Shown: positions 8,692 to 55,583, numbered from the stretch's first letter. The stretch is DNA of 64,000 nucleotides from an uncultured Planctomycetia bacterium (GCA_964634935.1 CAZWJT010000005.1:71128-135127); one strand, 5' to 3'. Notes: generated by a model not told the origin, from the letters alone. Numbers and translations are program-made.

Positions 8692-8774
8692 AAGGGAAAA
8701 TTTTCAATGCGCATCAAAAAGCCGATTCTGGAATGATAAGAATACCAACAAAAATTTCCCATTGCCTTATTCGC

Positions 8775-9413: not shown

Positions 9414-9622
9414 AGTTTTCCAATCTTTAATACTCCAATATGACAGGGTGCAGCAGACTCAATTAATTATATGCTTTTTCACATAATCATCAACTGTTTT
9501 GTATTTCCTCAGTCCTAAGGCTGTTTCGCGGCTTCCCCCATAGCCAAAAATCTTTTCCTTGTAATCTTTCCCTTACTCCGATAGAATCATGTGCAAGAAT
9601 ACTATAAAAAAGAAAGTATTTC

Positions 9623-38400: not shown

Positions 38401-41400
38401 ATACTGAGAATCATACCCTGCGCGGAAAAACCAAGAAGATCAGCCGCCCAAGAATCGCGAGAAACAAAAACTACTTGCTCTACGTCAAGCATATCTTCCG
38501 AATAACTGCGCAATACCTGATTAATAGCGTCAATTAAAAAAGCCTGTTTTTCCGATGCCATACGTACCGCCTGTGAATCAACGCCATGCAGAGCAGCAAG
38601 AAAACTGCGCACTCCACCATCCATATCCATTCTCTCTTGCACGCTGCTTACGATCATTTTTCTTTCGTCCAACAATTGTCGATGCCGATCCAGAGTATCC
38701 TGTAATGTCTTAATCACCCTCGGGTCTCCGTTATGCTTTTGTTCCCGGTTTAAATCTTTCTTGGTTCTTTCGATTGCAGAGGATAATCGGGAAAGATACC
38801 GGGCCAATATCCCATGGACATATTCTTTCTCGTGAGAAGAAACAGGATAAGAACCAAGCCTCTCTCCCCCGAGATCCTCCCGATCAACTCCTATACCCTG
38901 GCCCCACCCCAATCCTAAGGCTAACCCGACAAGCAAAGCCTGCCGGTTTGTAAAACCAAATTCTCTCTGCAAAACAGATAATTCTTCCTGAGGATCTTTT
39001 ATGCCAAAATTTTGAGGATGATCTCTCAGGCGCATTAAAGCAAGACGCATCCCGGCTGTAGACGGATCTTCACCAACCCGGCTCAGTATGTGCGCGGCAA
39101 TCGCACCCCAGTCGGTTAAGCCCGACTGCACCAAGGATAACTTTGTTGCGTTGAAATCCGACATAAGTTCCTGGATGAATCCCAATTCCCCGGAAATAAG
39201 CTTGCCTTGTACTTTTTGTTCTTTTGCGATAAGCAGGATGCTATCTTCTAAGGCCTGACGAGCTATTCCCATAGGCGATTGCTTTGTGATGTGCAAAAGC
39301 CTTCTTACTTGTGCCGGCGAAAGAATGATGCGCGCCTTCGGTAACGACCGGGTAAACATCAAGGAAACCTCTCGGTATACAGAAGGGCGCACGGAAGATT
39401 CTAAAATATCAAAAACATGGTCTACAAATCGTGGATGGCTACGAAAAATCCTGGGGAGCACTTTCGGCAGATGTATCGGTGACTGAGCCATCGCATGCAC
39501 AATAATCTTAGCTTCTCTTTTCCCGATGGGCACACTGTACATGACAAATATTTCTTCCAGTTTCTCGGCAATGACCGAACGAACAAAATCCGCAAATTGC
39601 CCTTTATGCCCGCTTATCTCTTTCAATTTATTTACAAGATACAAAAATTCTTTTTCCGGAGGATTATCAGAACGAATAACATCTTTCCGCTCCTGAATTG
39701 CTTGAGCCAAAGAAAGCAGCTTCATGTTTTGTGTCTCGCTCCGGATATATTGTGTCAAGAACCTATCGCTTTCACCAAAAACATACCGCTGAACTGCCCG
39801 CAAAAGATAATGGGGATTATTCTTGTCGCGTAAAGCGATTCTTAAAGATTCTCCATTGATTTTAATCCGAGCGATTTCCCTACCGCGGGCACTCATCACT
39901 ATTTCCCCGCTCACTGCATCGTTTTTATGAAAAATCCTCCCCATCCCCAGGGCGTTCAGAAAGGCAGGGAATGCTCCTCGAAAATGCAACGTAAGCAGAT
40001 TCGCTGCCACCAAATACTCAAAAAGCTCATGAAGATACGCGATAGTCTTTATATCCTGGGTTGCGGATCCGGTGGGAGCTAGGTTACCAAAGATTGCGAT
40101 AAAATTATTCTCGATTGAAACAAACCCGAATAAATCATCTACAAGAGAATCGAAGGTATACAGAGAAGGTCTCCGTTCCTCAGGAAGGTCGCGAAAAATA
40201 TTGAGAAGCGAAGTCAGTAAATCCTGCTTTTCTTTACTGAATCCGAAAAACTCAATATTCTGGATAATCCGCTCAAGATCAATCTTTCCTTTTTTACCCA
40301 ACGGGAGAACCTGCTCCTTGCCTGATTGGGTAATAAGCGTGATATTTTCTCCGGTAAAAATTTTAAACGCCTTCACGCGTTTCCCCATCTGCGGCAGCTT
40401 ATCCTCTGTTTGTTCATCAGCTCGACCAGAAGTAATCGGGGCGACATTAACCCGGACTACCGAAGCCTTACCGGGAATATTTGGCGGAACAGACGACGGA
40501 CGTAACATCTGTGGCATTTTGGTAAAATCAGCACCCCCGGAGTAATACCGACGCTTCACTGTCCGCCCAGTATGGTTGTCGTATTCGGATTTAATGTAGT
40601 TATAGATTCCCTTCTTGAATGCCTCGAGATACAGCTGATATATTTTTTCTTTTGCCGCGGTGTCTACAATATCGATCCCGGAAATCTTCTCTTTGTTGAT
40701 ATACCCGGTATAGACACTTTCTTTAAGTTTATTTTTGAACCAGACTGCCAGAATAAGCGAAGAATAAATTTGCCGGAGCCTGGCAAAATTCCTTCCAGAA
40801 TTGATCTCCTGTTCTATCTGAGGAAGAAGAATCTCGCGAACCATCCGGGATGAAATCCTATTCACCTGACTGATGGTTTGATCATTGAGAGAACTTTCGT
40901 GCTTAATGTAGCTTCGATTATTCTGCAAAGCTCGGTAATCTTCTTCCAGCATTGCCTTCAGCGAGGATTCACCGATGAGCGCCGTTGTCCCTTCCTCATA
41001 CACAGAAACTGAACCTGGAATAATCCAAATCTTGTTGAAGGTATTCACTGGGATATTTTCTGCTTGAATAACCCGGTAAATCTCTTGATATGTTTTTTTC
41101 CAGAAAGCTCGTCCTAATTCGGCCTCAGGATACGTAAGAGACGCTAAAAGTTGTTTTAACACATAGTCTTGCGAAAGTAGGTCTCTGCCTAAATCCGTTC
41201 CGCTGAGAGCGTGCGGCGCCACGCGATCTTGTTCGTATGGAGAAAGATTGACCCAAAGGTTCTCTTCGGGAATCGTAAGTCCGGCAAGAAAATACTTAAT
41301 CAACAGTTCAGCTTCTTCACGCAACATACCGCTCGAGGCGTCAGCAAGGTCATGCGAAGAAAGGATAAATTCAAGTTCGAACGGCTTGTCTGGATTGATC

Positions 41401-41603
41401 CGGATACCCGCCAGAGTGGGTAAAGAATAGTGTGCCGACATATCCACTAGAGTCGCGGGGCGCGGAACATCGATGGCTTCGGCAAATGAGTTTATCTGGT
41501 ATGAATGAAAGGCTCGCTGCGAAACAAATGTGCTGAAAACAAATATGCAGACAATTACCAGCCCCATTGCCCTGATTGAAGCATTTCCTTTTCTTCCGAC
41601 CAT
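35484..41603 (-). CDS. Giant protein (2,039 aa): N-terminal signal/anchor, long mostly helical body with an internal HExxH zincin-like motif, and a C-terminal GGDEF-like (GGDEI) domain
   Basis: Uninterrupted 6,120-nt ORF. The N-terminus 'MVGRKGNASIRAMGLVIVCIFVFSTFV' is a signal peptide or signal anchor. 'LIHEALHKQF' followed by 'FEEATVE' about 25 aa later lies at nt 38301..38315. The C-terminal ~180 aa align along their length with diguanylate cyclase domains: 'LAVIDQDVQD' vs DxD, 'NQDGGDEIVFFVP' vs RYGGEEFvvilP, 'ITFALGVTAV' vs tvSiGva, 'ADAMAKAIENFNYAAIV' vs AD.ALY.AK..GRN.v. Confidence 0.6.
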   Translation of the reverse strand: MVGRKGNASIRAMGLVIVCIFVFSTFVSQRAFHSYQINSFAEAIDVPRPATLVDMSAHYSLPTLAGIRINPDKPFELEFILSSHDLADASSGMLREEAELLIKYFLAGLTIPEENLWVNLSPYEQDRVAPHALSGTDLGRDLLSQDYVLKQLLASLTYPEAELGRAFWKKTYQEIYRVIQAENIPVNTFNKIWIIPGSVSVYEEGTTALIGESSLKAMLEEDYRALQNNRSYIKHESSLNDQTISQVNRISSRMVREILLPQIEQEINSGRNFARLRQIYSSLILAVWFKNKLKESVYTGYINKEKISGIDIVDTAAKEKIYQLYLEAFKKGIYNYIKSEYDNHTGRTVKRRYYSGGADFTKMPQMLRPSSVPPNIPGKASVVRVNVAPITSGRADEQTEDKLPQMGKRVKAFKIFTGENITLITQSGKEQVLPLGKKGKIDLERIIQNIEFFGFSKEKQDLLTSLLNIFRDLPEERRPSLYTFDSLVDDLFGFVSIENNFIAIFGNLAPTGSATQDIKTIAYLHELFEYLVAANLLTLHFRGAFPAFLNALGMGRIFHKNDAVSGEIVMSARGREIARIKINGESLRIALRDKNNPHYLLRAVQRYVFGESDRFLTQYIRSETQNMKLLSLAQAIQERKDVIRSDNPPEKEFLYLVNKLKEISGHKGQFADFVRSVIAEKLEEIFVMYSVPIGKREAKIIVHAMAQSPIHLPKVLPRIFRSHPRFVDHVFDILESSVRPSVYREVSLMFTRSLPKARIILSPAQVRRLLHITKQSPMGIARQALEDSILLIAKEQKVQGKLISGELGFIQELMSDFNATKLSLVQSGLTDWGAIAAHILSRVGEDPSTAGMRLALMRLRDHPQNFGIKDPQEELSVLQREFGFTNRQALLVGLALGLGWGQGIGVDREDLGGERLGSYPVSSHEKEYVHGILARYLSRLSSAIERTKKDLNREQKHNGDPRVIKTLQDTLDRHRQLLDERKMIVSSVQERMDMDGGVRSFLAALHGVDSQAVRMASEKQAFLIDAINQVLRSYSEDMLDVEQVVFVSRDSWAADLLGFSAQGMILSIPNGRGGFSYIVLISSDLEDPLVITKTLIHEALHKQFSQGRYDNSSKNRQLVGLFSIFEEATVERQAGQITEQLCRSNPAIREMLLERKDITSSGLMILAGIDDEIQWLVSQVSSTYLAEQRLVAEMLQRWPGKAQGAIDSFLRAADPRQLEQLFGEDFHYLTELIQGKVRQTPEYLFMLYVLHRIVEGLSMSAQARADVALFSEVISTVDVSDLEANLAAVVFHEDEDDNSYFDWLFSQSKQKATHRVFDDIVRGTVELPLDRFDRGRELARIYQTYIESIFETLARHRQPRSTVKPGERRVEHEQRKDTQRRSAVDRIVVGIHKFNEFGIRVTHVLSALMMRRPLTKGDIQTLGEMSQRIISQNPVVALIRQVQEGDSVLVFNQQDIKLLNKILSMPENDAVILHRQMTLLELLRKSGIISSEEQRISSDYKQDKFVIKKSVFESRFMGNPELLLQALERVIQDLAHEMNRFVHDEYSNYEALSTFQFRANYGVSLAVKKPTNQARILADIQALQAAKIAKISSDLGNKIRGAIFSLDTFDQFVMQAESLRESLGLRPQEAPSEEKMKAVRGQAHAHLAGTQLQLKQYLDILDLFDYPKNWLGANIEQESQRILRVLEGLEALRTRAPPDTFGEYITLFQEAVILIETNPKNRTITSSEQFHREAYRLSQNGGRVVAADVKGFWAMIQGNLIQAHQNYLAVIDQDVQDKEQVAIHEMVQADDFVKSTMREKVETLIGILRQTIPEENFISEVGLRGSAVIINQDGGDEIVFFVPRDFNLSELETALSPGGMNVRIMAAEINHDQTSRPPDITFALGVTAVTHPWHDDSERVYGYADTYTSAQSADAMAKAIENFNYAAIVSAEVDGRNAMKWIIYRMNDGRVVREAYDTFIQNLSSGKIISQERRGQTSDTGGIDFRSLSLNQKNSILGNKLGEHFEHIQGFTFLIVQIQPIASLSHFLEPERIRQNVVE

Positions 41604-41807: not shown

Positions 41808-42923
41808 TTAAGGGTTGAATTGTTCGAGGACTAAAAGATGTTCTTTGGGATTTAACTTAACCGTGAAATGCTTCAGGAAACTCATTCCTAAGAGACCATC
41901 TTCTGGCATTGGTTCAGCTTGTTCTAAAACTGCAGCGAGAACATTGTTGACTTCGGCATCCCCAAGCTTAACATTCCTGAGAATGACCTGCTTTGCCTTC
42001 ACGGTTCTCCCGTCAGCAAGAATAGCCTGCATCTCTTCTTTTTCCTCCGCAAGATTAATGTTCAGTTTCTCGGCTAAGTCACGCGATAATAAAACCATTG
42101 CGGCTCCCGTATCCAAAACAAACCGTCCTCGAACCGAATGGTTCAGTAATACTTCGACGATAATACTTGCCCCTGTTTGATCATACACAACGACTTCCCG
42201 GTTAAAATCATTCTCCATCTTTTCAAGATGCTCTTTTGCCGATTCAAAAAATAACCTCATCTGGTTGTCAATCTGTTCATGCTTCAGTCCGGAAAACCGC
42301 TCCATAAGTTTTTTCCGAAACAGGGCAAGTTCATTTGTATAGTTAAAAATCTGTTTTTCGAATCGCTTTATTTTATCGTTCGATTCTGCGATTGTATACT
42401 CATGAATCCTCACCTGGGCGTTTAGGTTATTCATCTCAGTCACCAGATTATTATATAATTCAATGTTTTCTGCCGGATTTTTCACTGCCGCGACTTGCTC
42501 GCTTACTTCAATAAGGCGCTTCTTAAGCTCATCTGTTTTTTGCTCTAAGACTGAGAGGCTTCCCTGAGAATCATCTTTATCCTTTTTGGCCTCAACGGCA
42601 AGGGTGCGCGCCCGTTCAAGCTTACGAAACTCAGCAGCAAGATCCTTCAGTTTAAACGGAGTGTATTCCGGACGTGAAAAATATTTCTTTCTCCAGTTTC
42701 GTTCTAAACGCTCCTGAAGCACATACGGATATCTATCAATCCGTTCAACCTCTTCTTTCTTAATATGCATAGTGCCGCAACCAATATTCACAACAATTGC
42801 TTTTTCTGTTTCACGCTCGATAATCCCCTCAATCTGTCCTTTATTCGTAAGATAAACCATATCGGCAAAAACCTGGAACTGAAAATACCCCAAGAAAAAG
42901 AAGATTAAAAATAATCGGCCCAT
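41808..42923 (-). CDS. Signal-peptide protein with central coiled coil and C-terminal retropepsin-like (clan AA) aspartic protease domain
   Basis: 'RGRFVLDTGAAMVLLSRDLAEKL' contains the D-T-G-A catalytic motif, followed by 'LLGMSFLKHF', as in the bacterial retropepsin-like family. The N-terminus is hydrophobic ('MGRLFLIFFFLGYFQFQVFA'). Confidence 0.6.
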   Translation of the reverse strand: MGRLFLIFFFLGYFQFQVFADMVYLTNKGQIEGIIERETEKAIVVNIGCGTMHIKKEEVERIDRYPYVLQERLERNWRKKYFSRPEYTPFKLKDLAAEFRKLERARTLAVEAKKDKDDSQGSLSVLEQKTDELKKRLIEVSEQVAAVKNPAENIELYNNLVTEMNNLNAQVRIHEYTIAESNDKIKRFEKQIFNYTNELALFRKKLMERFSGLKHEQIDNQMRLFFESAKEHLEKMENDFNREVVVYDQTGASIIVEVLLNHSVRGRFVLDTGAAMVLLSRDLAEKLNINLAEEKEEMQAILADGRTVKAKQVILRNVKLGDAEVNNVLAAVLEQAEPMPEDGLLGMSFLKHFTVKLNPKEHLLVLEQFNP

Positions 42924-42954: not shown

Positions 42955-44868
42955 CTAGATTTCAGCGACTACCACCGTGACATCGTCATGTTGAATAGTA
43001 TTCCGCGAAAAAAACAATAAACGTTCCTTGAGCGAAAATGCCACATCTGCTGCCCGCAACCCGGAAAATGCATTGGCATAATCGAGAAAACGGTGAGGCC
43101 CAAATTCCTGTTGGGCTCTATTGCGCGCTTCCGTTACCCCATCGGTATAAAATATGAATTTGTCGCGGGGTGCGATGTTATCAAATGTATTGTCACGGTA
43201 TGCGTAGTTTTCTATAACACCGAGAGGAATACCGGAATCTAGAGAAAGATATTTACTTGAAAGTTTATTGGTATCGCAGTACACCGGACTGCTGTGGCCA
43301 GCAGACGCGCAAATACAAGTCCGTTTGGAAAAATCAAAAACAGCATACAGCGCAGTGACAAAACGACCTTTCAACCTCCCGGACAGTTCATGGTTTAAAA
43401 GAGTCAGTACTTTTGCCGGGGAAGACTCTTGTCTGGCGTAGATACGAAATAAAGAAAGCGTTTGCGCCATAATCAAAGATGCGGGCACTCCTTTACCGGC
43501 GACATCACCGATAAAAATTCCCGAGGCATGTTCGTTAAAAATAACAAAATCATAAAAATCACCGGCAACGAATTTTGCAGGTAGGAAAAATACTTCAACC
43601 TGGAATTGTTTTGAAGGAGCGTCTTCCAGGGGAAGAAATGAACTTTGGATTTCGCGCGCGACGACGAGTTCTTTTTCTAAGGCCCCCCTCCGGCGCACTT
43701 CTTGGGCAGCTTTCAGCAGCGCTGAACAAAAAAATAAAGCCGCAAGCGTGCTGGTTGGGGTAAAAACTAAAATCCACAACCCGGTAAACGCAAACAACAA
43801 AAATGCGAGCGTTGCGTAACCAAAAATGAGCAGAAAAAGGTACTGAATTCCCTTCCGTAATGAACAAGCTAAGAAAACAATCCAGCCTAGAAGAAGAAAC
43901 CCTGAACAAAGCAGAAAATTCCATACCTCGCCGATCTGGACAAGAAATTTTCCAGTCATCAGATTATGGAAGATGTTCGCCTGAAGCCCAACCAGAGGAT
44001 AAAGAACGCCAACCGGTGTAGGACGTAAATCGGAAGTGCCGACCGCGGTTAAACCGATAAAACAAACTTTGCCTTGCAGCTGCGTTAAATCAAAGCTTGG
44101 CTTCTTTCCTTTCAATACAGCTTGATGGCTCCGCAAAATCTCAAGATAGGAAGTGTGGGTAAAAGTACGCGTGAAATCCCCAGCGTAATTTACCAGAAAA
44201 GTGCCTTTATAAACCGGCACAGATATTTTACCATCTAAAAAGATTCTGTTCTGGCCGACAACAATCTTTTCCGGATTGGCCTGTAAAATATCACAAGCAA
44301 CTCTTGCTCCAAGCGGCAGATAGGTTTTCCGGCCTTGGGAGAGAAGAAAGGGAAGCCGACGTATTTTCCCGTCTCGATCAACTGAGACATTGATATGGCC
44401 GCTTGCCACTGCCGAAGAAGCAATTTTTTCTTCCGAAACCAGAGCGAATTCTGAAGATGATTGCGAAGATGAGGCTTTCTCCACCTGAAAAACAACCGGG
44501 AGATAAACATTTTTGGCTTTCTGAAAAGCAGAAATAAGTAAGTTGTCGTAGGCGGTTTTCTCAGAAAAAACCATGTCAAAAACAATGGCTTGAGCCTTAT
44601 AGTGCGAAAGAATATCTACAATGGAAGCGTGAAAATCACGGGGGATCGGCCATGAGCCGAGTTTTTTCAAGCTTTCTTCGGAAATCTCAACGAGAACGAC
44701 CCGGGAAGAAGAAACTCCTGGCGGACGGAGAGAAAAGAACCAATCAAAAATAAATAACTCATATTGCTCAAAAGGCCTGCAAAAAACAAGATATCCAACA
44801 ACAAGGATAAAAAAGATGCCAATAACGATATTGCGTACTGATTGGCTTAAAGACAGGAAAAGCTTCAT
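42955..44868 (-). CDS. CHASE2 extracytoplasmic sensor, TM region and PP2C/SpoIIE-family serine phosphatase
   Basis: N-terminal TM, then a ~300-aa periplasmic CHASE2-like region, four TM helices, and a C-terminal 'GDVAGKGVPASLIMAQ' and 'FYTDGVTEA' PP2C/SpoIIE core. Confidence 0.65.
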   Translation of the reverse strand: MKLFLSLSQSVRNIVIGIFFILVVGYLVFCRPFEQYELFIFDWFFSLRPPGVSSSRVVLVEISEESLKKLGSWPIPRDFHASIVDILSHYKAQAIVFDMVFSEKTAYDNLLISAFQKAKNVYLPVVFQVEKASSSQSSSEFALVSEEKIASSAVASGHINVSVDRDGKIRRLPFLLSQGRKTYLPLGARVACDILQANPEKIVVGQNRIFLDGKISVPVYKGTFLVNYAGDFTRTFTHTSYLEILRSHQAVLKGKKPSFDLTQLQGKVCFIGLTAVGTSDLRPTPVGVLYPLVGLQANIFHNLMTGKFLVQIGEVWNFLLCSGFLLLGWIVFLACSLRKGIQYLFLLIFGYATLAFLLFAFTGLWILVFTPTSTLAALFFCSALLKAAQEVRRRGALEKELVVAREIQSSFLPLEDAPSKQFQVEVFFLPAKFVAGDFYDFVIFNEHASGIFIGDVAGKGVPASLIMAQTLSLFRIYARQESSPAKVLTLLNHELSGRLKGRFVTALYAVFDFSKRTCICASAGHSSPVYCDTNKLSSKYLSLDSGIPLGVIENYAYRDNTFDNIAPRDKFIFYTDGVTEARNRAQQEFGPHRFLDYANAFSGLRAADVAFSLKERLLFFSRNTIQHDDVTVVVAEI

Positions 44869-44875
44869 CGCATCT

Positions 44876-45850
44876 TCAGAAATTATACTGAAGGCTGCAG
44901 GAGATTATATTTTCTGAATATTCCTGGAAATGATCATTAGAAACATTTTGTTTATACGTATATGAGATATCGAGAGCCTGCGCTGAATTAATCATGTATT
45001 TTACTCCGGATGTCGCGGAATACAGTTTATCTCTCTGGATAAACCCACCCGCTGTCACCTGGCGGGATGTATAATTCTTCTTCTGAAACGAAAAATCGGT
45101 AAGCAGCGTCCACCGCGGAGTTAAGAAATGGCGTAATCCGACTTGCCCAAAATATGCTTTATAATCATAATAATCTTGAAAGCGAGCATTTGAATCATTC
45201 AGAAAAAGCTTTGTCCTACCGATAAGCAGGTTTTTCTTATCCAGATTCCCCCTCAATTCATACCCAAGCGTATGCTTCCGATCAAAACGCGTCTTCTCTT
45301 GATATGCAGTCGCGGTACCATCTAACGCGTACGCATTCAAGTAATCCTTCATACCATAGTGCCAGAAAATTCTCTGAGATAATTTCGGGGTAAGCCTGTG
45401 ACGTATGTAAAAAAATGGTTCATGAATAATATTGTTCCCTTCCCGATTCTCAGGAAAATAAAGGAATTTGAAATCATATCCAGTGCCGAGAGTAAAATCG
45501 CCAATACGCTTATGTAAGCCAAGTTCTAAGTTCTGCCACAGGGAACTTGCGTCGACAACTTCCGAATAATTCGTATAATCACCCGAATAAAGTATCCGGA
45601 GGTTGGTTGTAGGACATAATTTCAAGGAATATGCTTGAGCAAAAGAAATCTTCTCGAATACATCTCCTTCGCGTTCCTGATCCAAACGGACATTACTATC
45701 GAACCCTGTCGATAAGCCCCATTGCGTGCGCGAGAACATATTAAAAGATTTCTGCGCTTCCGGCCGCTGAGCCTTTTCCTCAACAAGCGAAAGAGCAAAA
45801 ACACTCAAGGGAGCACAGATTATAATAAGAACCATTAACGCTTTTTTCAT
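44876..45850 (-). CDS. Outer-membrane beta-barrel protein (unknown family)
   Basis: Signal peptide 'MKKALMVLIIICAPLSVFA', amphipathic beta-strand periodicity, and a C-terminal '...CSLQYNF' aromatic terminus typical of OMPs. Confidence 0.55.
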   Translation of the reverse strand: MKKALMVLIIICAPLSVFALSLVEEKAQRPEAQKSFNMFSRTQWGLSTGFDSNVRLDQEREGDVFEKISFAQAYSLKLCPTTNLRILYSGDYTNYSEVVDASSLWQNLELGLHKRIGDFTLGTGYDFKFLYFPENREGNNIIHEPFFYIRHRLTPKLSQRIFWHYGMKDYLNAYALDGTATAYQEKTRFDRKHTLGYELRGNLDKKNLLIGRTKLFLNDSNARFQDYYDYKAYFGQVGLRHFLTPRWTLLTDFSFQKKNYTSRQVTAGGFIQRDKLYSATSGVKYMINSAQALDISYTYKQNVSNDHFQEYSENIISCSLQYNF

Positions 45851-45907
45851 AGTTTCCCTCCCCTATAAAAACTTGTTATATTACAGCAAAAAACTGTATT
45901 TGTAATT

Positions 45908-46747
45908 TTAATATTCGTTTTCCTCTTCTTCCTCTTCCTCTTCTTCTTCCTCTTCTTCCTCTTGTTCCTCTTCTTCCTCTTCTTCTTCCTCTTCTTGCAA
46001 CTGCAAACGCTCATCATCTTGAGTTTCACGCAAATCCTCTTTCCGAGTGTCCTCTGTTTCAGAAGAAAAATCTTCATCGGAAGTATCTGGATCGCTGGTT
46101 AAAAGAGCAAGAAAAGCATCCCATGCTTTCTGTTGTTCTTCAGAAAGAGGAAATGGGGGTCGTAAATTTCCCTGATCGTCAGAAGAAATACAGAAGCCCT
46201 CTTGAATAACCTGTTCTTCATCCTTAATTGACCGGATAAAAATCTGGTCTTCAAAACAACAGATCGTAGCTCCCTTTTTGTCAGAAGAAGCCCCTAATCC
46301 TGTACCGCGAACTCCAGCTATCGCGACTGGAGTTTCCAGAGTAAACTCTTCCCCTGCCGGAATATCGTCGATTAATGAAAAAACACGCCCGCTCTTTAAA
46401 ACAATGGCTCCGGGAATAAGATTAGCAACAATAAGGTGCGAGTTTTCTCCAATCTGAACTTTGTTGGCTTGCTCCATTCCAAACTCCAGGATACACTCTG
46501 CGTTCTCCCCAGTCCTAATTTCTCCCCGGGAAGAAAGAACACCCCCTATTGCGGCAGGAATAAAATCAGAATCAGTCACATCTTTTACCGTAACTACTCC
46601 TTTGGTATGCGTGATTTTTGCGGTTTGAGCATCCGCCTTGCTTCCAAAAGACAAACACAACACAACAATAAGAAAAATACTTATCCGGCGCATAAGTCCC
46701 TCCTTATTTAAAACTATTTTCGTTCTTTGCGATAGAGTAATTTCCAT
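45908..46747 (-). CDS. FecR-domain secreted protein with C-terminal poly-Glu tail
   Basis: Signal peptide. 'TKGVVTVKDVTDSDFIPAAIGGVLSSRGEIRTGENAECILEFGMEQANKVQIGENSHL' matches the FecR/PF04773 beta-sandwich pattern. The C-terminal ~30 residues are almost pure Glu. Confidence 0.55.
   Translation of the reverse strand: MEITLSQRTKIVLNKEGLMRRISIFLIVVLCLSFGSKADAQTAKITHTKGVVTVKDVTDSDFIPAAIGGVLSSRGEIRTGENAECILEFGMEQANKVQIGENSHLIVANLIPGAIVLKSGRVFSLIDDIPAGEEFTLETPVAIAGVRGTGLGASSDKKGATICCFEDQIFIRSIKDEEQVIQEGFCISSDDQGNLRPPFPLSEEQQKAWDAFLALLTSDPDTSDEDFSSETEDTRKEDLRETQDDERLQLQEEEEEEEEEEQEEEEEEEEEEEEEENEY
45915..46000. repeat. Imperfect (TTC/CTC)n trinucleotide microsatellite, ~85 nt, encoding the poly-Glu tail on the minus strand
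   Basis: Read directly: 'ttcctcttcttcctcttcctcttcttcttcctcttcttcctcttgttcctcttcttcctcttcttcttcctcttctt'. Confidence 0.9.
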
Positions 46748-47346
46748 GGGTGGCGCTTCAAATCAGCGCTCATTTCCTCAATATTCTGTGAAGTTGACTC
46801 AAAATTCTTCAACATTTGAGAAAGCGTAGTCTTATTCTCGGAAACAGTAAGGTTCAGGTTTGTGGAAAGAATTTTAACTTCGTCGATTAAGCTTTCGACT
46901 TTTTTTGAAATCACCAAAGCCTCTTCCATGATCGCATCAAGATCCTGCATGCTTACGCCTTGAAGAATTTCTCCGGGCATAATAAATTGCTCCCCTGTGT
47001 GACTTGCAATCTGGATATACTTTTCGCCCATCAAACCTAAGGTCTTTATCGATACCTTGGCCCCTTTGCGAATTTGCGCCTTTTTTTCAATCCAAAGCTT
47101 AAGTTTAATAAAAGTCTTATCTTCCTGGTAGACCGGCTCAATACCGTCTACCTTACCAACCGTAAGACCGTTGAGCATTACGGGCGCTTTGTCTTCCAAA
47201 CCGGAAATTTCATCAAAAATGACGAATATCGAATACCCTTCCTGCTTTAGGGGTAACTTACCTGTTTTTACGGTAATGTAACCAAGCGTTATGATAGCAA
47301 GAAGAATGAGAAATCCTGCCTTGAATTCATTCGAATAGTTCTTCAT
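46714..47346 (-). CDS. mlaD: MlaD (MCE-domain) periplasmic component of phospholipid ABC transporter
   Basis: N-terminal TM followed by an MCE domain ('VKTGKLPLKQEGYSIFVIFDEISGLEDKAPVMLNGLTVGKVDGIE'). It is 210 aa. Confidence 0.8.
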   Translation of the reverse strand: MKNYSNEFKAGFLILLAIITLGYITVKTGKLPLKQEGYSIFVIFDEISGLEDKAPVMLNGLTVGKVDGIEPVYQEDKTFIKLKLWIEKKAQIRKGAKVSIKTLGLMGEKYIQIASHTGEQFIMPGEILQGVSMQDLDAIMEEALVISKKVESLIDEVKILSTNLNLTVSENKTTLSQMLKNFESTSQNIEEMSADLKRHPWKLLYRKERK

Positions 47347-47354
47347 GTGTCCTC

Positions 47355-48167
47355 CTAAGCAGTTAAGTCTTTTAATAAACTATCGTCTTCACGATAAAAA
47401 TCAATCGGGCCCTCTGCCAACCCATTAATGAATTGCTGAATCACCTGGTTCTTAGAATGCTTCAGTTCTTGCGGGGTCCCTATCTCGACAATTTTCCCCT
47501 GATAGAGCATAAGCGCCCTGTCCGCAATACGGAAAACACTCTGCATATCGTGAGTCACTACAATAGAAGTAATGAGCAGTTTTTTACTTAAATCAAGAAT
47601 GAGTTTATCAATGATCCCACCGACTACTGGATCAAGCCCAGAAGTAGGTTCATCATAAAAAACAATATCTGGATCTAAAGCAATCGCCCGAGCTAAACCT
47701 ACACGCTTACGCATGCCCCCAGAAATCTGTGATGGATAATATTGCTCAAAACCGCGAAGACCGACGAGCGAAAGCTTCATTTTGACGATAATCTTGATGA
47801 TGCTTTCTGCTAAATGCGTGTGCTCGCGAATAGGCAAAGCAACATTTTCCTCTACCGTAAGAGAATCAAGAAGCGCGGAATATTGGAAAAGCATGCCGAA
47901 AGACTTTCTCACTTCTTCCAATTCATTCTGAGTATGGTTTGTGATATCTTTTCCCTTAATAAGAATTCGGCCGGAATCAGGGGTAAGAACACCGGTCATC
48001 AGTCTTAAAAGCGTGCTTTTCCCAGAACCAGAACATCCCATGATCACAAAAATCTCGCCGCATCGTATATCAAAACTTACGTTATCGATAACCGGACGAC
48101 CGGAAAGAATCTTGGTAACATTTTGGAAAGAAATCACGGTCTCAGCAGTACATTTTTTCTCGTTCAT
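47355..48167 (-). CDS. mlaF: MlaF ABC transporter ATP-binding protein (start probably the internal Met at 48167; the ORF extends to 48209)
   Basis: Walker A 'GCSGSGKST', signature 'LSGGMRKRVGLARA' and Walker B 'VFYDEPTSGLD'. Confidence 0.85.
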   Translation of the reverse strand: MNEKKCTAETVISFQNVTKILSGRPVIDNVSFDIRCGEIFVIMGCSGSGKSTLLRLMTGVLTPDSGRILIKGKDITNHTQNELEEVRKSFGMLFQYSALLDSLTVEENVALPIREHTHLAESIIKIIVKMKLSLVGLRGFEQYYPSQISGGMRKRVGLARAIALDPDIVFYDEPTSGLDPVVGGIIDKLILDLSKKLLITSIVVTHDMQSVFRIADRALMLYQGKIVEIGTPQELKHSKNQVIQQFINGLAEGPIDFYREDDSLLKDLTA

Positions 48168-48169
48168 AC

Positions 48170-48958
48170 TTACATTTTTGAAAAATAAAATATTCCTGTC
48201 AACACGCAATCAGCAAGAATAATAAGAATAAAGCTGGTAACAACGCTCTTTGTCGTTGCCTTGCCTACCCCTTCAGCTCCACCTTTGGTATTCAGCCCCT
48301 CAAAACAGCCGACCAAAGCTATAATCATCGCAAAAACAAATGCCTTGGTAAGCCCGGTAAAAATATCTTTAAGTTCCAAATATTTGAAGGTTGTTTGGAG
48401 ATAGAGATCGGGACTGAGGTGGAGACTATTCACGCCCACAAGAAAGCCGCCGAGAATCCCAGAGATATTACCGATTATCGTCAATGAAGGAAGCATGATA
48501 AAAAGAGCGACAAACCGCGGAACCGCGAGGAAACGAACAGGATTGATTGCCATGATTTCAAGAGCCTCAATTTGTTCGGTAACTTTCATCGTCCCAAGCT
48601 CAGCTGCGATTGCAGAACCCACTCGCCCGGCAACAACCAATGCCGTGAGCACCGGGCTTAATTCCCGACAAAGCGAAATGGCGACCAGCGAAGCAACATA
48701 AAGAACCCCTCCCATTTTCTGCAATTGGTAAGCGGTCTGCATCGCAAGAACAATCCCGGTAAAAATCGTAACAAAAAAAACGATCACCAGAGAACGGTTG
48801 CCTGAAAAAACAAGCTGGGCAGCGATATTTTCGCGCATGGAGGATGTCCTTTTCACGAAACTTAACCCAATCCAGTAAAAAATCTGCCCCAAGAGAACTG
48901 ACATTTTCTGGGCAGTAACAAAAAAATCAAGAAAAATTCTCCCGATATATACTATCAT
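48170..48958 (-). CDS. mlaE: MlaE ABC transporter permease
   Basis: Five to six TM helices with 'VALVGCFEGLNTKGGAEGVGKATT', typical of MlaE/TTG2B permeases. It is 262 aa. Confidence 0.8.
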   Translation of the reverse strand: MIVYIGRIFLDFFVTAQKMSVLLGQIFYWIGLSFVKRTSSMRENIAAQLVFSGNRSLVIVFFVTIFTGIVLAMQTAYQLQKMGGVLYVASLVAISLCRELSPVLTALVVAGRVGSAIAAELGTMKVTEQIEALEIMAINPVRFLAVPRFVALFIMLPSLTIIGNISGILGGFLVGVNSLHLSPDLYLQTTFKYLELKDIFTGLTKAFVFAMIIALVGCFEGLNTKGGAEGVGKATTKSVVTSFILIILADCVLTGIFYFSKM

Positions 48959-48961
48959 TCT

Positions 48962-49294
48962 TTAAAAATTCTTTTTTGCGGTTTCAAGATCGTTCACAAT
49001 AGTAAAAATTGTGTCGAGTTTGGTAACTTCAAAAATATTCTTCACTTGAAAACTCATCCCGCACAGTTTCATAATCCCTTGTATCTTTTTTATTCTCTGG
49101 AGCATCTCAATCAAAGTGGCAAGCCCGGAACTATCGATATACGAAACGTGGGCAAAATCGACAATTACCTTTTTAGCGTCTTGTCGAATCAATCTATCAA
49201 AAAATTTTCTGAGCTCCGGAGATGTGCTGATATTGATTTCTCCGGAAACCGCACAAATACTTATGTCGTTTTCTTTTATCTCTTTCATCTCCAT
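48962..49294 (-). CDS. STAS-domain protein (anti-sigma-factor antagonist / MlaB-like)
   Basis: 'VDFAHVSYIDSSGLATLIEML' STAS core with a conserved Ser in the 'DSSG' phosphorylatable position. It is 110 aa. Confidence 0.7.
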   Translation of the reverse strand: MEMKEIKENDISICAVSGEINISTSPELRKFFDRLIRQDAKKVIVDFAHVSYIDSSGLATLIEMLQRIKKIQGIMKLCGMSFQVKNIFEVTKLDTIFTIVNDLETAKKNF

Positions 49295-49312
49295 CGAATA
49301 CCTCCCTTACAC

Positions 49313-49777
49313 TTATCTTTCTGTCGTCGGTTGAACTGAATCCGCCGTAGTCCCGCGGAGCACCTTACTCATTCGTATTCTACTTCCGCCTTCAAGAAAT
49401 TCCACGCGATCCATGAGTTTTTCAATCAAATACACGCCCCTTCCTGAAGTCCGCATGAGATTATTACCCTGCGTTGGATCAAGAATTTTTTCTCTACAGA
49501 AACCGTGTCCTTGATCTTTGATTTCGATTTCAAGGACTTTCTCGCCTCCGCCAATCTGCACCTCCCAGGAAAGCTCCTCCTGTTTTTTATTTCCATGCAC
49601 AATAGCGTTGACAATCGCCTCCTGTAGAGCGGTTCTAATCAAAAAAACCTCTTGTTCATTAGGGGAATTTGACTGCAGGATTGAGTTCATTACTGTTTCA
49701 ACAAAGCAAGAAACTTTTGTGATAATTGAGGGAAAAATAAACTTTACTGGTTGTGGCATACTTGCTCTATGCGGCAC
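49313..49777 (-). CDS. RsbW/SpoIIAB-like anti-sigma factor serine kinase (GHKL ATPase)
   Basis: N-box 'ALQEAIVNAIVHGN' and G-boxes 'DQGHGF' and 'GRGVYLI'. It is 154 aa. Confidence 0.75.
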   Translation of the reverse strand: MPHRASMPQPVKFIFPSIITKVSCFVETVMNSILQSNSPNEQEVFLIRTALQEAIVNAIVHGNKKQEELSWEVQIGGGEKVLEIEIKDQGHGFCREKILDPTQGNNLMRTSGRGVYLIEKLMDRVEFLEGGSRIRMSKVLRGTTADSVQPTTER

Positions 49778-50322: not shown

Positions 50323-51150
50323 TTAAAGGAATTGATCTTTTTCGACGATCGCTGTCTCCAGAATGTGTGAAATACGGAAAGTGCGTTCTTCGTTATTTCT
50401 CAAGCAGAATGCAACAAGATACGTCTTTTCTTGACGAATCTCTATCTTCTTTGGCACGATATCCCTCTCGGAAAGAAATCCTCCGTTTGATGCCAGATAT
50501 TTGATATGTACTGTTTTCTGTCGCTGGATAGCCTGATCGAAAAGAGAAATTTTCTCCTGCTCAAGCTTTGACCGTTGTGAAACCCCAAAAACAGACAAAA
50601 GCTCTTCCAGCGAAACAATGCCGCTTTTCTCTAAGAATGGTAAAAAATGCAGAAATATTTCTCCGGTCACCCGGGCATCAAAAAGTGCGCGATGGAATTG
50701 AGGCGTAACCATATGGAGTTGGTTACTCACATGCTGTAAATTATAGCGGGTGAGTCCCGGTAAGTAGGTACGAGCCATAGCAATGACATCAACGGCGTGA
50801 TTTACAGGAAAATCAGTCCCTGTCCTTCTCAATTCTTCGCGCAGAAAACCAAGGTCAAAGCCGATATTATACCCAAGCAACACCGCATTGCCCAAAAACC
50901 CGCGGAAGTTCTCCCAAATTTCCCCGAAAAAAGGGGCTGAAACAACATCTTGGTCGGATATTCCATGAACACGGGTTGCCTCGTCAGGAATAGAACGCCC
51001 AGGATTGACTAGAGTGGAGAAGGTCTCGGAAATAGTTGCTCCCCTGATCCGAACAGCCGCCAGTTCACATACTGAATGTTCCCCAGGAAGAATTCCGGTT
51101 GTCTCAAAATCAAATACAACAAACTCTGTATCTTTGACTGCTTGAATCAT
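50323..51150 (-). CDS. DEDDh 3'-5' exonuclease (DnaQ/epsilon-like) with ~100-aa C-terminal extension
   Basis: Exo I 'VVFDFETTG', Exo II 'LGYNIGFDLGFL' and Exo III 'HRALFDARVTGEIF' motifs. Confidence 0.75.
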   Translation of the reverse strand: MIQAVKDTEFVVFDFETTGILPGEHSVCELAAVRIRGATISETFSTLVNPGRSIPDEATRVHGISDQDVVSAPFFGEIWENFRGFLGNAVLLGYNIGFDLGFLREELRRTGTDFPVNHAVDVIAMARTYLPGLTRYNLQHVSNQLHMVTPQFHRALFDARVTGEIFLHFLPFLEKSGIVSLEELLSVFGVSQRSKLEQEKISLFDQAIQRQKTVHIKYLASNGGFLSERDIVPKKIEIRQEKTYLVAFCLRNNEERTFRISHILETAIVEKDQFL

Positions 51151-51656
51151 ATATCGAGCGTGGAGAGAATCCGCTTTGACGCCTTAATAGCGGAAGACGC
51201 GGAATCGACTTTTTGAACTCCCGGAATGTCCCATGTTTCAATGCCTATCACTTTTTTCCCCTCACTCAGTGCGAAAGAAAGCTCAGACAAAGTACCACAT
51301 TCACCCGCGATGGCAATAAGCACATGGCAGGCCCGAACAATGAGAAAATTACGAGCATAACCTAACCCGGTCGGAATACCTACGGTAAGATACGCATTGG
51401 CGTCTTTACCGTCAGGGCTCGGTAAAATCCCGATGCAGATTCCTGATAACCTCCGCGCACCTCTGCATGCTGCCTCCATTACGCCTCCTCTTCCCCCGCA
51501 GATAAGCACCCAGCCTTCTTTGGCAATTAACTCGCCAACTTCTTCGGCAATCTTGGCGATTGCCTTGGTGCAAACATGACCTCCAATCACTCCGATGTTA
51601 ATCTTACTCCCCAACATATTTAACAACGATCTTTCTGGATCTCTTCCGGGTATCAA
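51147..51656 (-). CDS. TIGR00725/LOG-like (SLOG) Rossmann-fold protein
   Basis: 'IGVIGGHVCTKAIAKIAEEVGELIAKEGWVLICGGRGGVMEAACRGA' matches the LOG/TIGR00725 GGGxGxME-type core. The start is probably an internal Met, and the ORF overlaps the next one by ~50 nt. Confidence 0.55.
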   Translation of the reverse strand: MIPGRDPERSLLNMLGSKINIGVIGGHVCTKAIAKIAEEVGELIAKEGWVLICGGRGGVMEAACRGARRLSGICIGILPSPDGKDANAYLTVGIPTGLGYARNFLIVRACHVLIAIAGECGTLSELSFALSEGKKVIGIETWDIPGVQKVDSASSAIKASKRILSTLDI

Positions 51657-52361: not shown

Positions 52362-53306
52362 TCATGGCAGTCTCTTCATGATCTTCCGAAAATACGGGAT
52401 GGTTTTCTGCAAACCATCAGCAAGCGATACTACGGGATTCCACTGAAAAAGCTGCTGCGCCTTTGTAATATCTGGTTTCCGCTTTTTTGGGTCATCTTCC
52501 GGAAGAGGCAGAAGTTTGATCTGCGATATCCCTCCGGTCATTTGTTGAATAAGCAATGCTAATTCCTGAACGGTGAATTCAGTAGGATTGCCTAAATTCA
52601 CTGGTCCCGGGTAATCAACGCCCATAGAACGGACAATCCCTTCAATCAAGTCATCGACGTAACAGAAAGAACGAGTTTGGCTGCCAGAACCATAGACAGT
52701 AATATCTTCACCTTGGACTGCCTGAGTAATAAAATTTGAAATTACCCGGCCATCATTCACCCGCATAAAAGGTCCGTAGGTATTAAAGATCCGGATTACC
52801 CGAGTATTAATTTTATGTTGGCGAAAATAAGCAAAAGTAAGGGCTTCTGCGGCCCGCTTTGCTTCATCATAACAACTCCGGACTCCGATCGGATTAACAT
52901 TCCCCCAGTATTCTTCCGGCTGAGGGTGTACTTGAGGATCCCCATAGACTTCGGAAGTCGAGGCAAGAAGAAAATGAGCTTTTTTTTCCTTGGCGATACC
53001 AAGACAATTATGAGTCCCCAAAGTCCCCACTTTCAGGGTTTTTATGGGATAGTCAAGGTAATCCTTCGGAGAGGCAGGAGAAGCGAAATGCAAAACCCAA
53101 TCAATGGCGTCGTTTAGATATAAAGGATTGGAAATATCGTGTTCAATAAACGTAAAGCGGCTCTGTCCGGATAAATCACGAATATTATCGAATGTACTGG
53201 TAATGAAATTATCTATCCCTATCACTTTATAACCATCGGCCAGAAGCCGGCGGCTTAAGTGTGAGCCGATGAAACCACTGCAGCCGGTCAGAAGAACTGT
53301 TTTCAT
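52362..53306 (-). CDS. uxs: UDP-glucuronate decarboxylase (UDP-xylose synthase)
   Basis: '[13 protein letters not shown]' Rossmann motif, '[38 protein letters not shown]' with the YxxxK catalytic motif, and length 314 aa are all characteristic of UXS. Confidence 0.8.
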
Positions 53307-54268
53307 CTCTTCGCAGCAAACTGTTGTTGAAACCAGGAAACAGTCCGCGATAAACCTTCTTCGAAGCTGATCTGTTTTTTCAAGCCTAAAACGAGCCTGA
53401 GTTTACGGGTATCCGCCTGCGTTTTATAGACGTCCCCCCGACGAACAGCAAGATAACGCGGGGTAACCTTTGTGCCAATAATTTTCTGCAATGCTGAAAA
53501 CAAACCATTCACTGAATACGGCTTTCCTAACGCAACATTGAAAATCTCGCCTTCAATCTTTTCTTTAGAAAGCGCTAGGATATTCGCCGTAACTACATTC
53601 TCAATATAAGTAAAATCTCTCTCTTGGGTCCCATCTCCGTAAATCGGCGGCCGTTCCTTACGCAGAAGAGTGGTGATAAATTTTGGCACAACTACGGCGT
53701 ATTGATTTTCAAGGGATTGCCGCGGACCAAAAACATTAAAATACCGCAAGCCAACCACGCCTAATTTATAGAGCTTACTAAAAAGATACCCGTAGTGTTC
53801 ACAAAGAAGCTTGGTCGCCGCATAGGGAGAAACCGGCTTCGGCAGGTCTGTTTCCCTCTCGGGAAAATCAGTGCGGTCGCCATACACGGAACTGGAAGAA
53901 GCAAAAACAACTCTTTTTACGCGCGCAGTTTTTGCTTCAAGCAATAAATGGAAAGTCCCGGTGACATTCACATCATGATACTCTTCCGGGCATTCCACAG
54001 ATTTTGGAACACTCCGAAGGGCCGCTTGGTGACAAACAAACTCTGTTCCTCGCAGCAGTTTCGCCAGAACTTTCCGGTTTCGGATATCCTCCCGAACCAT
54101 CGTAACACGGGAACAACAACCCGCTAAATTTTCTTCTTTACCGGTGTATAAATTATCAAGAACCGTTACTTTCGCCCCATACTCAAGAAGTTTTTCGACA
54201 ATATGCGAACCAATAAAACCACATCCTCCGGTCACAAGAATTTTCTTACCTTTTAACATACCACTCAT
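53303..54268 (-). CDS. NAD-dependent nucleotide-sugar 4-epimerase (TviC/WbpP-like)
   Basis: '[19 protein letters not shown]' and '[11 protein letters not shown]' (YxxxK). It is adjacent to a TviB/WbpA-like dehydrogenase. Confidence 0.65.
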
Positions 54269-54280
54269 GACTTTTAAAAA

Positions 54281-55582
54281 TTATAGCTTGATTATATTCG
54301 CACTCTTTACCGAGTAGACATTTCGTGTATCAAAAATAACTCTGCTATTTTTCTGAAGAAAAGAATAATCAACCCCTGAGTGGTCTGTAACCAATATAAC
54401 ACAATCAAGGTTTTTCAGTAACTTCTTTGAGAGAGGCTGCGAAGAAAGTTTAAGACCGTTGATATCAAGATAAGGGATGAGCGGATCGTTATAGAAAATA
54501 TCCGCCTGCTGCGCTTTGAGCAGCTCAAGGATATCTAAAGCCGGCGATTCACGTAAATCCTTCACATCCCGCTTATAGGTTACGCCTAAAACGAGAATTT
54601 TCTTTGATTGGAGCGTAGCGGAACTTAAGATCTGTTTTATTCTTTCAACGACGTAGAAAGGCATATAACGATTTGTGAATGACGCAAGATCGATCATTTT
54701 TGTCTTAAAACCTACCTGCTTTGCTTTCCAGGAAAGATAGAGCGGGTCTTTTGGGATACAGTGTCCTCCAATTCCCGGTCCAGGATAAAATGGCATGAAA
54801 CCAAATGGTTTCGTTTTTGCCGCTTCAATCACCTCCCAAACGCTAATCTTGAGCTTTGAGCATAACATTGCAAATTCGTTAATCAAACCAATATTTACCA
54901 AACGAAAAGTATTCTCCAGGAGTTTAACAGTCTCAGCGGTTTCTATGGAAGAAACTCCGACGACTTTCTTGATAATCTTCGAATAGAGCAACTGAGTAAG
55001 CATCCGGGAATTTTCTCCGATTCCGCTTACAACTTTCGGTATTTTTGCGAGTGGATAACGCTTATTGCCCGGATCAATACGCTCAGGAGAAAAACTCAGA
55101 AAAAAATCCCTTTCTTCACAAAATCCTGATTTTCGCAAAAGTGGAAGGATGACCTCGCGTGATGTTCCAGGATAGGTTGTACTCTCAAGAATGATAAGCT
55201 GAGGAGGATGCAAGTACTTGCGGATCATTTGGGAAGCGTGAATAATATAAGAAATGTTCGGGGTCTTTACTTTTCGAAGCGGAGTTGGAACGCAAATCAG
55301 GATGACCTCGGAATCTTTGATAATCTCAGGAGAAGTGGTCGGCTTAAAAATTCCTTTTTTGATATACCCAAGGATCTCCCGCGAGTTCGTATCAGTGATA
55401 TATTCTTTGCCCTGATAGAGAGCTTCTATCCGGGCGGAATTTGTGTCATATCCATAGACAAAGAAGCCTCGCTTGGCAAACTCAAGCGCCAAAGGCAATC
55501 CCACATACCCCATCCCGATAACGCAGAGCTTTACGGTCTTCTTTTGAATCTTGTGTTGCAAAGAAACAGCGGCTTCTATCAT
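54281..55582 (-). CDS. UDP-N-acetyl-D-glucosamine/mannosamine 6-dehydrogenase family (TviB/WbpA/WecC-like)
   Basis: 'KLCVIGMGYVGLPLALEFA' N-terminal NAD fold and 'GPGIGGHCIPKD' catalytic Cys motif in a 433-aa protein. Confidence 0.65.
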   Translation of the reverse strand: MIEAAVSLQHKIQKKTVKLCVIGMGYVGLPLALEFAKRGFFVYGYDTNSARIEALYQGKEYITDTNSREILGYIKKGIFKPTTSPEIIKDSEVILICVPTPLRKVKTPNISYIIHASQMIRKYLHPPQLIILESTTYPGTSREVILPLLRKSGFCEERDFFLSFSPERIDPGNKRYPLAKIPKVVSGIGENSRMLTQLLYSKIIKKVVGVSSIETAETVKLLENTFRLVNIGLINEFAMLCSKLKISVWEVIEAAKTKPFGFMPFYPGPGIGGHCIPKDPLYLSWKAKQVGFKTKMIDLASFTNRYMPFYVVERIKQILSSATLQSKKILVLGVTYKRDVKDLRESPALDILELLKAQQADIFYNDPLIPYLDINGLKLSSQPLSKKLLKNLDCVILVTDHSGVDYSFLQKNSRVIFDTRNVYSVKSANIIKL

Positions 55583-55583
55583 G

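Follow-up and report, generated by a model that had tools for sequence, protein, structure and literature searches.

In Escherichia coli, the STAS-domain protein MlaB is required for the stability and assembly of the transport ATPase MlaF, and its residue Thr52 occupies the centre of the interface with MlaF, where a Thr52Glu substitution weakens binding (PMC5016091, PMC7367683). Phosphorylation of MlaB on Thr52 has been proposed as an attractive, unproven possibility, for which neither kinase nor phosphatase is known, and the regulation of active MlaB is open (PMC5016091, PMC7367683). Here we describe a gene cluster at positions 42,955 to 49,777 (minus strand) of a 64,000-nucleotide stretch of bacterial DNA (GCA_964634935.1, CAZWJT010000005.1:71128-135127; the whole stretch is called the window below). 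In this cluster the genes of a partner-switching module, namely an RsbW-like serine kinase, a STAS protein and a CHASE2-PP2C sensor phosphatase, are interleaved with mlaE, mlaF and mlaD, as well as with genes for a FecR-domain protein and an outer-membrane protein (OMP). Judging from gene context, we put at roughly 0.6 the probability that the cluster encodes an MlaFED-type lipid ATP-binding cassette (ABC) transporter whose STAS subunit has retained, or else gained, a complete partner-switching circuit, the STAS protein being the MlaB-equivalent partner of MlaF and its reversible phosphorylation gating the transporter.

The E. coli and Acinetobacter baumannii MlaFEDB systems share with this cluster homologs of MlaE, MlaD and an MlaF with a C-terminal extension, a single-domain STAS protein within the operon, and an interface residue, MlaB Thr52, which corresponds to Ser55 here. 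They differ in that the STAS protein of the cluster is of the full-length SpoIIAA type (with strand beta5 and helix alpha4), precedes MlaEFD rather than coming last, and fails the MlaB equivalog model. A dedicated kinase and sensor phosphatase are encoded here, whereas MlaB has no known kinase (PMC7367683), and no MlaC or MlaA domain was found in the window, where the cluster encodes a small OMP and a FecR-domain protein, both of them optional. A survey of Mla systems in 1083 genomes identified MlaEFD as the ancestral core, with MlaA, MlaB and MlaC sparsely distributed (PMC10665443). Veillonella-type 'ancestral' systems, which lack MlaA, MlaB and MlaC, resemble the present locus in having an MlaEFD core without MlaA and MlaC and an outer-membrane protein encoded beside it (PMC10665443); unlike them, the MlaD found here has no beta-barrel extension, and STAS, kinase and phosphatase genes are present.

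The RsbU-RsbV-RsbW and SpoIIE-SpoIIAA-SpoIIAB modules provide the other half of the comparison. The same three protein types occur here; their catalytic motifs are intact, a DSSG acceptor is present, and the modelled STAS fold is nearly identical to those of RsbV and SpoIIAA. Here, however, no sigma gene comes after the kinase gene; kinase and STAS are followed by transporter genes, and the phosphatase receives its input through a periplasmic CHASE2 domain or, in relatives, a GAF domain. Partner switches with outputs other than sigma factors have been described, among them SypA/SypE, HsbA, SiaABCD and HenR/All4160 of Anabaena (PMC8256260; PMC8457831; bioRxiv 10.64898/2026.04.08.717354). In Vibrio SypE/SypA, Pseudomonas HsbR/HsbA and SiaABCD, Bordetella BtrUVW and Anabaena HenR/All4160, as would be the case here, a phospho-regulated STAS or STAS-like protein controls a non-sigma output, often an envelope or polysaccharide process; none of them, though, has an ABC transporter as neighbour or target, or interleaved mla genes.

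The original prediction held that such wiring had not been described, and for the link of a kinase and phosphatase to Mla this stands, in that our full-text literature searches found no paper describing it. The STAS protein itself had already been listed. A supplementary table of the Mla survey places a clustered 'MlaB' directly before MlaE, MlaF and MlaD, under consecutive accessions, in two of five Omnitrophica genomes, and the entry mentions no kinase or phosphatase (PMC10665443). What is new is a partner switch that is encoded beside an ABC transporter of the MCE family and probably has this transporter as its output.

The window comes from a Candidatus Omnitrophota bacterium. Relatives of its STAS protein number in the hundreds at 50-60% identity, nearly all of them 110 amino acids (aa) long and labelled Candidatus Omnitrophota. 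When one genome was scanned for each GTDB species, 545 genomes encoded a STAS relative, a figure that is no measure of cluster frequency in Omnitrophota, the loci having been gathered through a STAS motif. We compared 80 of these loci, several of which carry the unconfirmed placeholder label 'Planctomycetia', by tblastn with the window proteins, and took counts only over loci with enough flanking sequence. The order kinase-STAS-MlaE-MlaF-MlaD hardly varies among these species-level loci: the kinase gene lies upstream of the STAS gene in 72 of 73 testable loci, and MlaE (74/74), MlaF (68/68) and MlaD (65/65) follow in every testable case. A CHASE2-PP2C gene stands downstream in 40 of 44; it follows MlaD immediately or with one to four FecR-domain genes and an OMP gene in between. 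The STAS stop codon is 0-3 nucleotides (nt) from the MlaE start in about half of the loci. For 28 complete clusters, mean pairwise identity is 0.40 for the kinase, 0.53 for STAS, 0.65 for both MlaE and MlaF, 0.44 for MlaD and 0.41 for PP2C, and the six proteins have distance matrices that all correlate with one another (r = 0.73-0.92), in keeping with co-inheritance as one unit.

These comparisons bear directly on whether the arrangement might be fortuitous, or might simply reflect the dense packing and strand bias of genes in this genome, its parts having no functional link. Window genes are indeed nearly all co-directional and closely spaced, and in a promoter and terminator scan of 41.5-51.5 kb the counts were no higher than in shuffled sequence and no internal terminator was convincing, a result that is uninformative on operon boundaries. 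The co-directionality of the cluster carries little weight because almost all genes of the window lie on the minus strand; the arrangement is nonetheless more than chance because it is kept in 80 other genomes, with proteins 40-65% identical and flanks unrelated, and it recurs in two other phylum-level groups. The comparative data effectively refute fortuitous adjacency, to which we attach a negligible probability.

Flanking genes also define the extent of the unit. They differ between genomes, those of a complete Omnitrophota genome (L090; L numbers denote loci) being unrelated to the flanks in the window, and the conserved unit is therefore taken to run from the kinase gene through the PP2C gene. 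Two further candidates for membership were rejected: a retropepsin-like gene, which the original prediction had included in the string, was matched in none of the other loci, and an upstream 103-aa gene has one weak match only. In the retropepsin-like protein, the protease domain is preceded by a long coiled-coil region and, at the N-terminus, by a hydrophobic segment. As a separate observation, a single-cell assembly (L049/L050, JBHPFV010000032.1) contains two inverted MlaE-MlaF-MlaD-PP2C copies facing each other, probably a chimeric or palindromic artefact of multiple displacement amplification rather than biology.

In other lineages the same core is wired differently. Candidatus Ancaeobacter and its relatives (L083, L089), of the Auribacterota within the Planctomycetota-Verrucomicrobiota-Chlamydiota (PVC) group, have the order GAF-SpoIIE, HATPase_c_2, STAS, MlaE, MlaF, MlaD. 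Two Verrucomicrobiota-labelled loci (L069, L085), one of which sits in a cyanobacterium-named assembly and is probably a contaminant contig, carry STAS-MlaE-MlaF-MlaD followed by a 570-aa GAF-SpoIIE-HATPase_c_2 fusion. In a Verrucomicrobiae metagenome-assembled genome (L082), neither a kinase nor a phosphatase gene lies within 5 kb of STAS-MlaEFD; the STAS protein there retains YIDSSGLAT, and the cluster adjoins LpxA-like and LpxC-FabZ genes (7917-10064). STAS-MlaEFD is contiguous in three independent architectures, with regulators upstream, fused downstream or absent nearby, and the gene that constantly stays with the transporter is STAS. Farther STAS relatives (P0174, P0180 and P0154, about 50% identical to the Auribacterota protein), considered as signs of a wider reach, proved to be orphans without Mla neighbours and serve as a negative control; the STAS-Mla linkage is therefore specific to these lineages.

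The rewired loci also help to decide which protein would act on MlaF. MlaF (or MlaE) could occupy the place of the sigma factor, with the kinase sequestering MlaF until dephosphorylated STAS captures the kinase and frees it. This would keep the canonical interaction order of partner switching, and kinase and STAS genes do adjoin the transporter genes in most loci. The Verrucomicrobiae STAS-MlaEFD cluster, however, has no kinase nearby, the fusion of kinase to phosphatase in L069 and L085 is awkward for a stoichiometric inhibitor, and the documented precedent is the direct binding of MlaF by a STAS protein, MlaB (PMC7367683). We consider a kinase that inhibits MlaF distinctly improbable.

The kinase and the phosphatase both appear to be intact enzymes. 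The kinase (154 aa from a GTG start, or 148 aa from an ATG at 49759) scores 40-50 bits against the SpoIIAB and RsbW NCBIfam models, under their equivalog cut-offs, and the solved structures nearest to it among those relevant are RsbW and SpoIIAB, through weak matches; its top PDB match, 'SenB' (9qih), was set aside, the literature offering nothing relevant on it. Its N-box (E53, N57, G62), G1 (D88-x-G90-x-G92) and G2 (G112-R-G114) motifs are kept in 71-78 of 78 orthologs. In the phosphatase, CHASE2 occupies residues 23-330 and PP2C/SpoIIE residues 447-636. Hydropathy places transmembrane segments at residues 7-25 and then, as a group of three, at about 319-384, which would leave CHASE2 outside the membrane and PP2C in the cytoplasm. 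This is the CHASE2 sensor pattern of one transmembrane segment, CHASE2, three transmembrane segments and a cytoplasmic output domain, here PP2C. Its metal-binding Asp residues (D437, D455, D576-G, D628-D629) are kept in 45-46 of 47 orthologs.

The STAS protein passes the TIGR00377 anti-sigma-antagonist model (76.2 bits; cut-off 53.45) and fails the mlaB_1 model NF033618 (26.6 bits; cut-off 90). An AlphaFold2 model (mean predicted local distance difference test score, pLDDT, 95.9) contains beta5 (98-100) and alpha4 (103-107), with helix alpha2 starting at residue 55, and reaches TM-scores of 0.85-0.90 with TM1442, SpoIIAA and RsbV. Against E. coli MlaB the TM-score is 0.59-0.64, with a rank of 36th and lower, and a profile search orders these relatives in the same way. 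The minimal features of MlaB, a fold without beta5 and alpha4 and a match to NF033618, were looked for in the protein and not found. It thus belongs to the SpoIIAA/RsbV anti-sigma-antagonist class.

Residues 52-60 of the STAS protein read YIDSSGLAT, in which D54-S55-S56-G57 is invariant across the sampled orthologs, an invariance partly built in because the loci were collected with two scan patterns, of which YIDSSGLAT was one. We aligned the protein with the sequences of Bacillus subtilis SpoIIAA and E. coli MlaB, their numbering agreeing with the published Ser58 (phosphorylated) and Thr52. The motif aligns with SpoIIAA D57-S58-S59-G60, and Ser55 with both SpoIIAA Ser58 and MlaB Thr52. The original prediction had named the conserved Ser of DSSG as the phosphosite; the alignment with SpoIIAA Ser58 makes this more specific, and the predicted phospho-acceptor is the first Ser, Ser55.

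Additional STAS genes were noted at some loci. L015 (5951-9442; also L023) has a second STAS paralog, 40% identical, divergent from the kinase gene; HD_5 (HD-GYP-type), PilZ and MscS-family genes come after it, a hint that in this lineage the same kinase may serve a second branch related to cyclic di-GMP. L043 has an extra STAS gene after the PP2C gene. No second STAS, kinase or PP2C gene was found in the 64-kb window.

Kinase, STAS protein and phosphatase accordingly show the sequence features of a partner-switching module, without the usual adjacent sigma factor. No sigma-factor domain was found in open reading frames (ORFs) of at least 150 aa in the 64-kb window, and no sigma factor within 8-10 kb of the cluster in five Pfam-annotated loci (L082, L083, L085, L089, L090), in agreement with the original prediction that no such target is present. 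A classical partner switch could still act on an unlinked target, sigma factor or other, with the kinase as inhibitor of that target, the STAS protein a mere antagonist and the mla genes co-transcribed as part of an envelope-stress response. The passing of TIGR00377 and the closeness of the fold to SpoIIAA, RsbV and TM1442 fit such a switch, as do the nearest named relatives of the kinase, SpoIIAB and RsbW. In Chlamydia, also of the PVC group, the Rsb genes are reported to be dispersed, with the sigma target encoded elsewhere (PMC4552016), and extra STAS paralogs beside other signalling genes in some loci suggest a broader network. Weighing on the other side, apart from the missing sigma factor, is the position of the STAS gene: it is STAS, not the kinase, that always abuts mlaE, and it stays with mlaEFD when the kinase gene is moved, fused to the phosphatase gene, or absent. 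Moreover, deeply conserved operon membership with abutting start and stop codons typifies subunits rather than mere co-regulation. An unlinked target therefore seems to us unlikely, and control of the transporter by its STAS subunit is the reading we prefer.

The transporter genes themselves are readily placed as members of the Mla family. MlaE passes TIGR00056 (246.7 bits; cut-off 212.2). MlaF finds A. baumannii MlaF (248 bits) and E. coli MlaF (215 bits) as its best PDB matches; its 250.5 bits against the NCBIfam model, with an equivalog cut-off of 441, mark it as a family member and not an equivalog. The alignment extends to residue 273, through a C-terminal GP(I/V) segment, so that the MlaF-specific C-terminal extension is kept. 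In E. coli this extension stretches to the interface that the adjacent MlaF subunit forms with MlaB (PMC7367683). MlaD has a transmembrane helix at residues 8-26, one MCE domain and a helical C-terminal region whose HPWKLL tail is conserved in orthologs. No MlaC or MlaA domain was found in window ORFs of at least 150 aa, the rest of the genome lying outside the search.

On the reading we prefer, unphosphorylated STAS would bind the helical subdomain of MlaF as E. coli MlaB does, giving an active MlaF2E2D6 complex. The RsbW-like kinase would bind free STAS and phosphorylate Ser55, whereupon phospho-STAS would no longer bind MlaF or the kinase and transport would fall. An envelope signal acting on the periplasmic CHASE2 domain would then cause PP2C to dephosphorylate STAS and reactivate transport, with the FecR-domain protein and the OMP possibly relaying the signal to CHASE2. 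In Auribacterota and some Verrucomicrobiota, the same circuit would take its input through a cytoplasmic GAF domain. Binding of STAS to MlaF, the direction in which control works and the kind of signal are all inferred, the direction on the strength of the analogy with the E. coli Thr52Glu result and with SpoIIAA. The central claim of the original prediction, a partner switch whose output is Mla rather than a sigma factor, draws support from the synteny of 80 loci, the rewired STAS-MlaEFD cores, the catalytic motifs and the lack of a nearby sigma factor. Its proposal of a periplasmic CHASE2 input holds in Omnitrophota but does not extend to the other lineages, which use a cytoplasmic GAF domain.

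Several considerations detract from this interpretation. Firstly, another target, such as a sigma factor, could be encoded elsewhere in the genome, and the class to which the STAS protein belongs is that of anti-sigma antagonists, its MlaB-like working being inferred. Secondly, many Mla systems function without any MlaB, and a STAS subunit is thus not obligatory (PMC10665443). Thirdly, a PP2C gene is absent nearby in 4 of 44 loci. Lastly, partial correlations of the distance matrices are 0.27-0.49 and do not single out the STAS-MlaF pair over others, while the invariance of STAS owes something to the motif by which the loci were gathered.

The FecR-domain protein and the OMP, which the original prediction counted as members of the string, are present here and optional elsewhere, occurring together in 25 of 44 loci. 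The likely start of the FecR-domain protein is Met19, at 46693, and a signal-like hydrophobic segment covers residues 17-35. The protein weakly matches Leptospira Lsa33 and LipL45, and one to four copies are encoded in about 60% of loci. Its poly-Glu run (window 45908-46090) is uninterrupted and seen in this genome only; the tails of orthologs are acidic and of low complexity, rich in Gly and with 20-48% Asp plus Glu, but contain no homopolymer. The OMP has a signal peptide, weak matches to PEP-CTERM-associated OMPs and, in 32 of 34 orthologs, a C-terminal Phe. The two proteins do not constitute a Fec system: Plug and TonB-dependent-receptor domains are missing from the OMP, no extracytoplasmic function (ECF) sigma factor was found in the window, and the FecR match is weak and confined to the periplasmic domain.

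A secreted FecR-domain protein beside a CHASE2 sensor kinase forms a conserved pair in Burkholderia and Pseudomonas aeruginosa (PMC5192318). Those operons resemble the present one in placing the FecR-domain protein beside a sensor with one transmembrane segment, CHASE2 and three further segments (PMC5192318); they differ in that their output is a histidine kinase and response regulator, whereas here it is PP2C, with an OMP gene in between. The FecR-domain protein and the OMP more probably serve CHASE2 sensing, because FecR-domain and CHASE2 genes are a known pair (PMC5192318), and the FecR-domain protein is probably a periplasmic co-sensor for CHASE2. A role of the two proteins in the lipid path, as replacements for MlaC and MlaA, is less likely and was ranked below the sensory role, given that they are optional and that the FecR-CHASE2 pairing is known.

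A more ambitious proposal, which we advance tentatively and regard as rather doubtful, is that the whole cluster forms a single trans-envelope feedback loop for outer-membrane lipid homeostasis, in which the OMP and FecR-domain protein would inform CHASE2 of conditions in the outer membrane or periplasm, CHASE2 would activate PP2C, and STAS, once dephosphorylated, would license the MlaF ATPase, and that MlaB is the degenerate relic of such a switch. If true, such a loop would provide the first example from nature of an MCE/Mla transporter under phospho-control, and the descent of MlaB from it would explain the conserved, so far unexplained Thr52 of the E. coli protein.

Post-translational regulation of Mla is an acknowledged open question, for which the cluster gives a natural test case: PVC-related lineages encode a candidate kinase, a sensor phosphatase and an acceptor STAS protein beside the transporter, as pieces for a hypothesis that has stood since 2016. 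Were the preferred reading true, an ABC transporter would join the short list of non-sigma partner-switch outputs, and a periplasmic CHASE2 sensor, a type with unknown ligands, would be tied to outer-membrane lipid homeostasis in a mostly uncultured, ultra-small phylum.

The coordinates of the genes are collected in Table 1. The eight ORFs of the original prediction, from the kinase to the phosphatase, were recovered on the minus strand where it had placed them, with Pfam and NCBIfam in agreement as to their domains; its picture of a STAS protein set between its own kinase and a sensor phosphatase in one string likewise matches the gene content and packing.

Table 1. Genes of the cluster and the adjoining retropepsin-like gene, in window coordinates
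Feature	Position	Strand	Match	Remark
RsbW/SpoIIAB-type GHKL serine kinase	49313..49777	-	PF13581 HATPase_c_2, 75.6 bits	first gene of conserved cluster
Single-domain STAS protein, SpoIIAA/RsbV class, 110 aa	48962..49294	-	PF01740, 75.1 bits	
MlaE permease, 262 aa	48170..48958	-	PF02405, 266.6 bits	
MlaF-type ABC ATPase, 270 aa from ATG 48167	47355..48167	-	NCBIfam MlaF, 250.5 bits	
MlaD, MCE-domain subunit, 210 aa	46714..47346	-	PF02470, 61.7 bits	
Secreted FecR-domain protein, acidic low-complexity tail	45908..46747	-	PF04773, 25.2 bits (cut-off 24)	
Outer-membrane beta-barrel protein (OMP), 324 aa	44876..45850	-	BBP2_2, 27.4 bits, weak	
CHASE2-PP2C membrane sensor phosphatase, 637 aa	42955..44868	-	PF05226, 179.6 bits; PF07228, 143.8 bits	
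Retropepsin-like protein (clan AA)	41808..42923	-	Pfam/NCBIfam	

Spacing within the cluster is tight. The gap of 18 nt between the kinase and STAS genes contains, in the junction sequence, a GGGAGG ribosome-binding site, and the STAS stop codon is followed after 3 nt by the MlaE ATG. MlaE and MlaF nominally overlap by 40 nt because the longest ORF was taken; that ORF, with a TTG start at 48209, is probably too long, and the two genes are 2 nt apart if MlaF starts at ATG 48167, the start called on an identical Logan contig (L001). The gap between MlaF and MlaD is 8 nt. MlaD and the FecR-domain gene overlap by 34 nt, or are separated by 20 nt when counted from the internal Met, and the FecR-domain gene is followed by 57 nt before the OMP gene, as had been predicted. 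The OMP gene lies 7 nt from the PP2C gene, and the 31-nt gap previously placed before the latter follows it instead, separating it from the retropepsin-like gene.

Immediately downstream of the cluster region, a 2039-aa ORF (window 35484-41603, minus strand) has no Pfam match. L011 (17544-18536) and L041 (12992-14011) each encode, a short way downstream of their copy of the cluster, a partial homolog of it with 41-46% identity at about 16% coverage. A Zn_ribbon_8 (PF09723) gene, of which none was seen in the window, comes immediately after the cluster in the complete Omnitrophota genome (L090, 16468-16680) and in the two Auribacterota loci L083 (11212-11499) and L089 (11344-11592). Just upstream of the cluster, an RNase_T exonuclease-WYL fusion and a SLOG/LDcluster4 protein are encoded with a 4-nt overlap (window 50323-51656, minus strand); they could be a nucleotide-signalling or defence-type pair, and are not conserved beside the cluster in other loci. 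Further upstream, 3-9 kb from the kinase gene, the window has genes of outer-membrane biogenesis, for LptD and four UDP-sugar dehydrogenases/epimerases (56910-59018 and 52362-56903).

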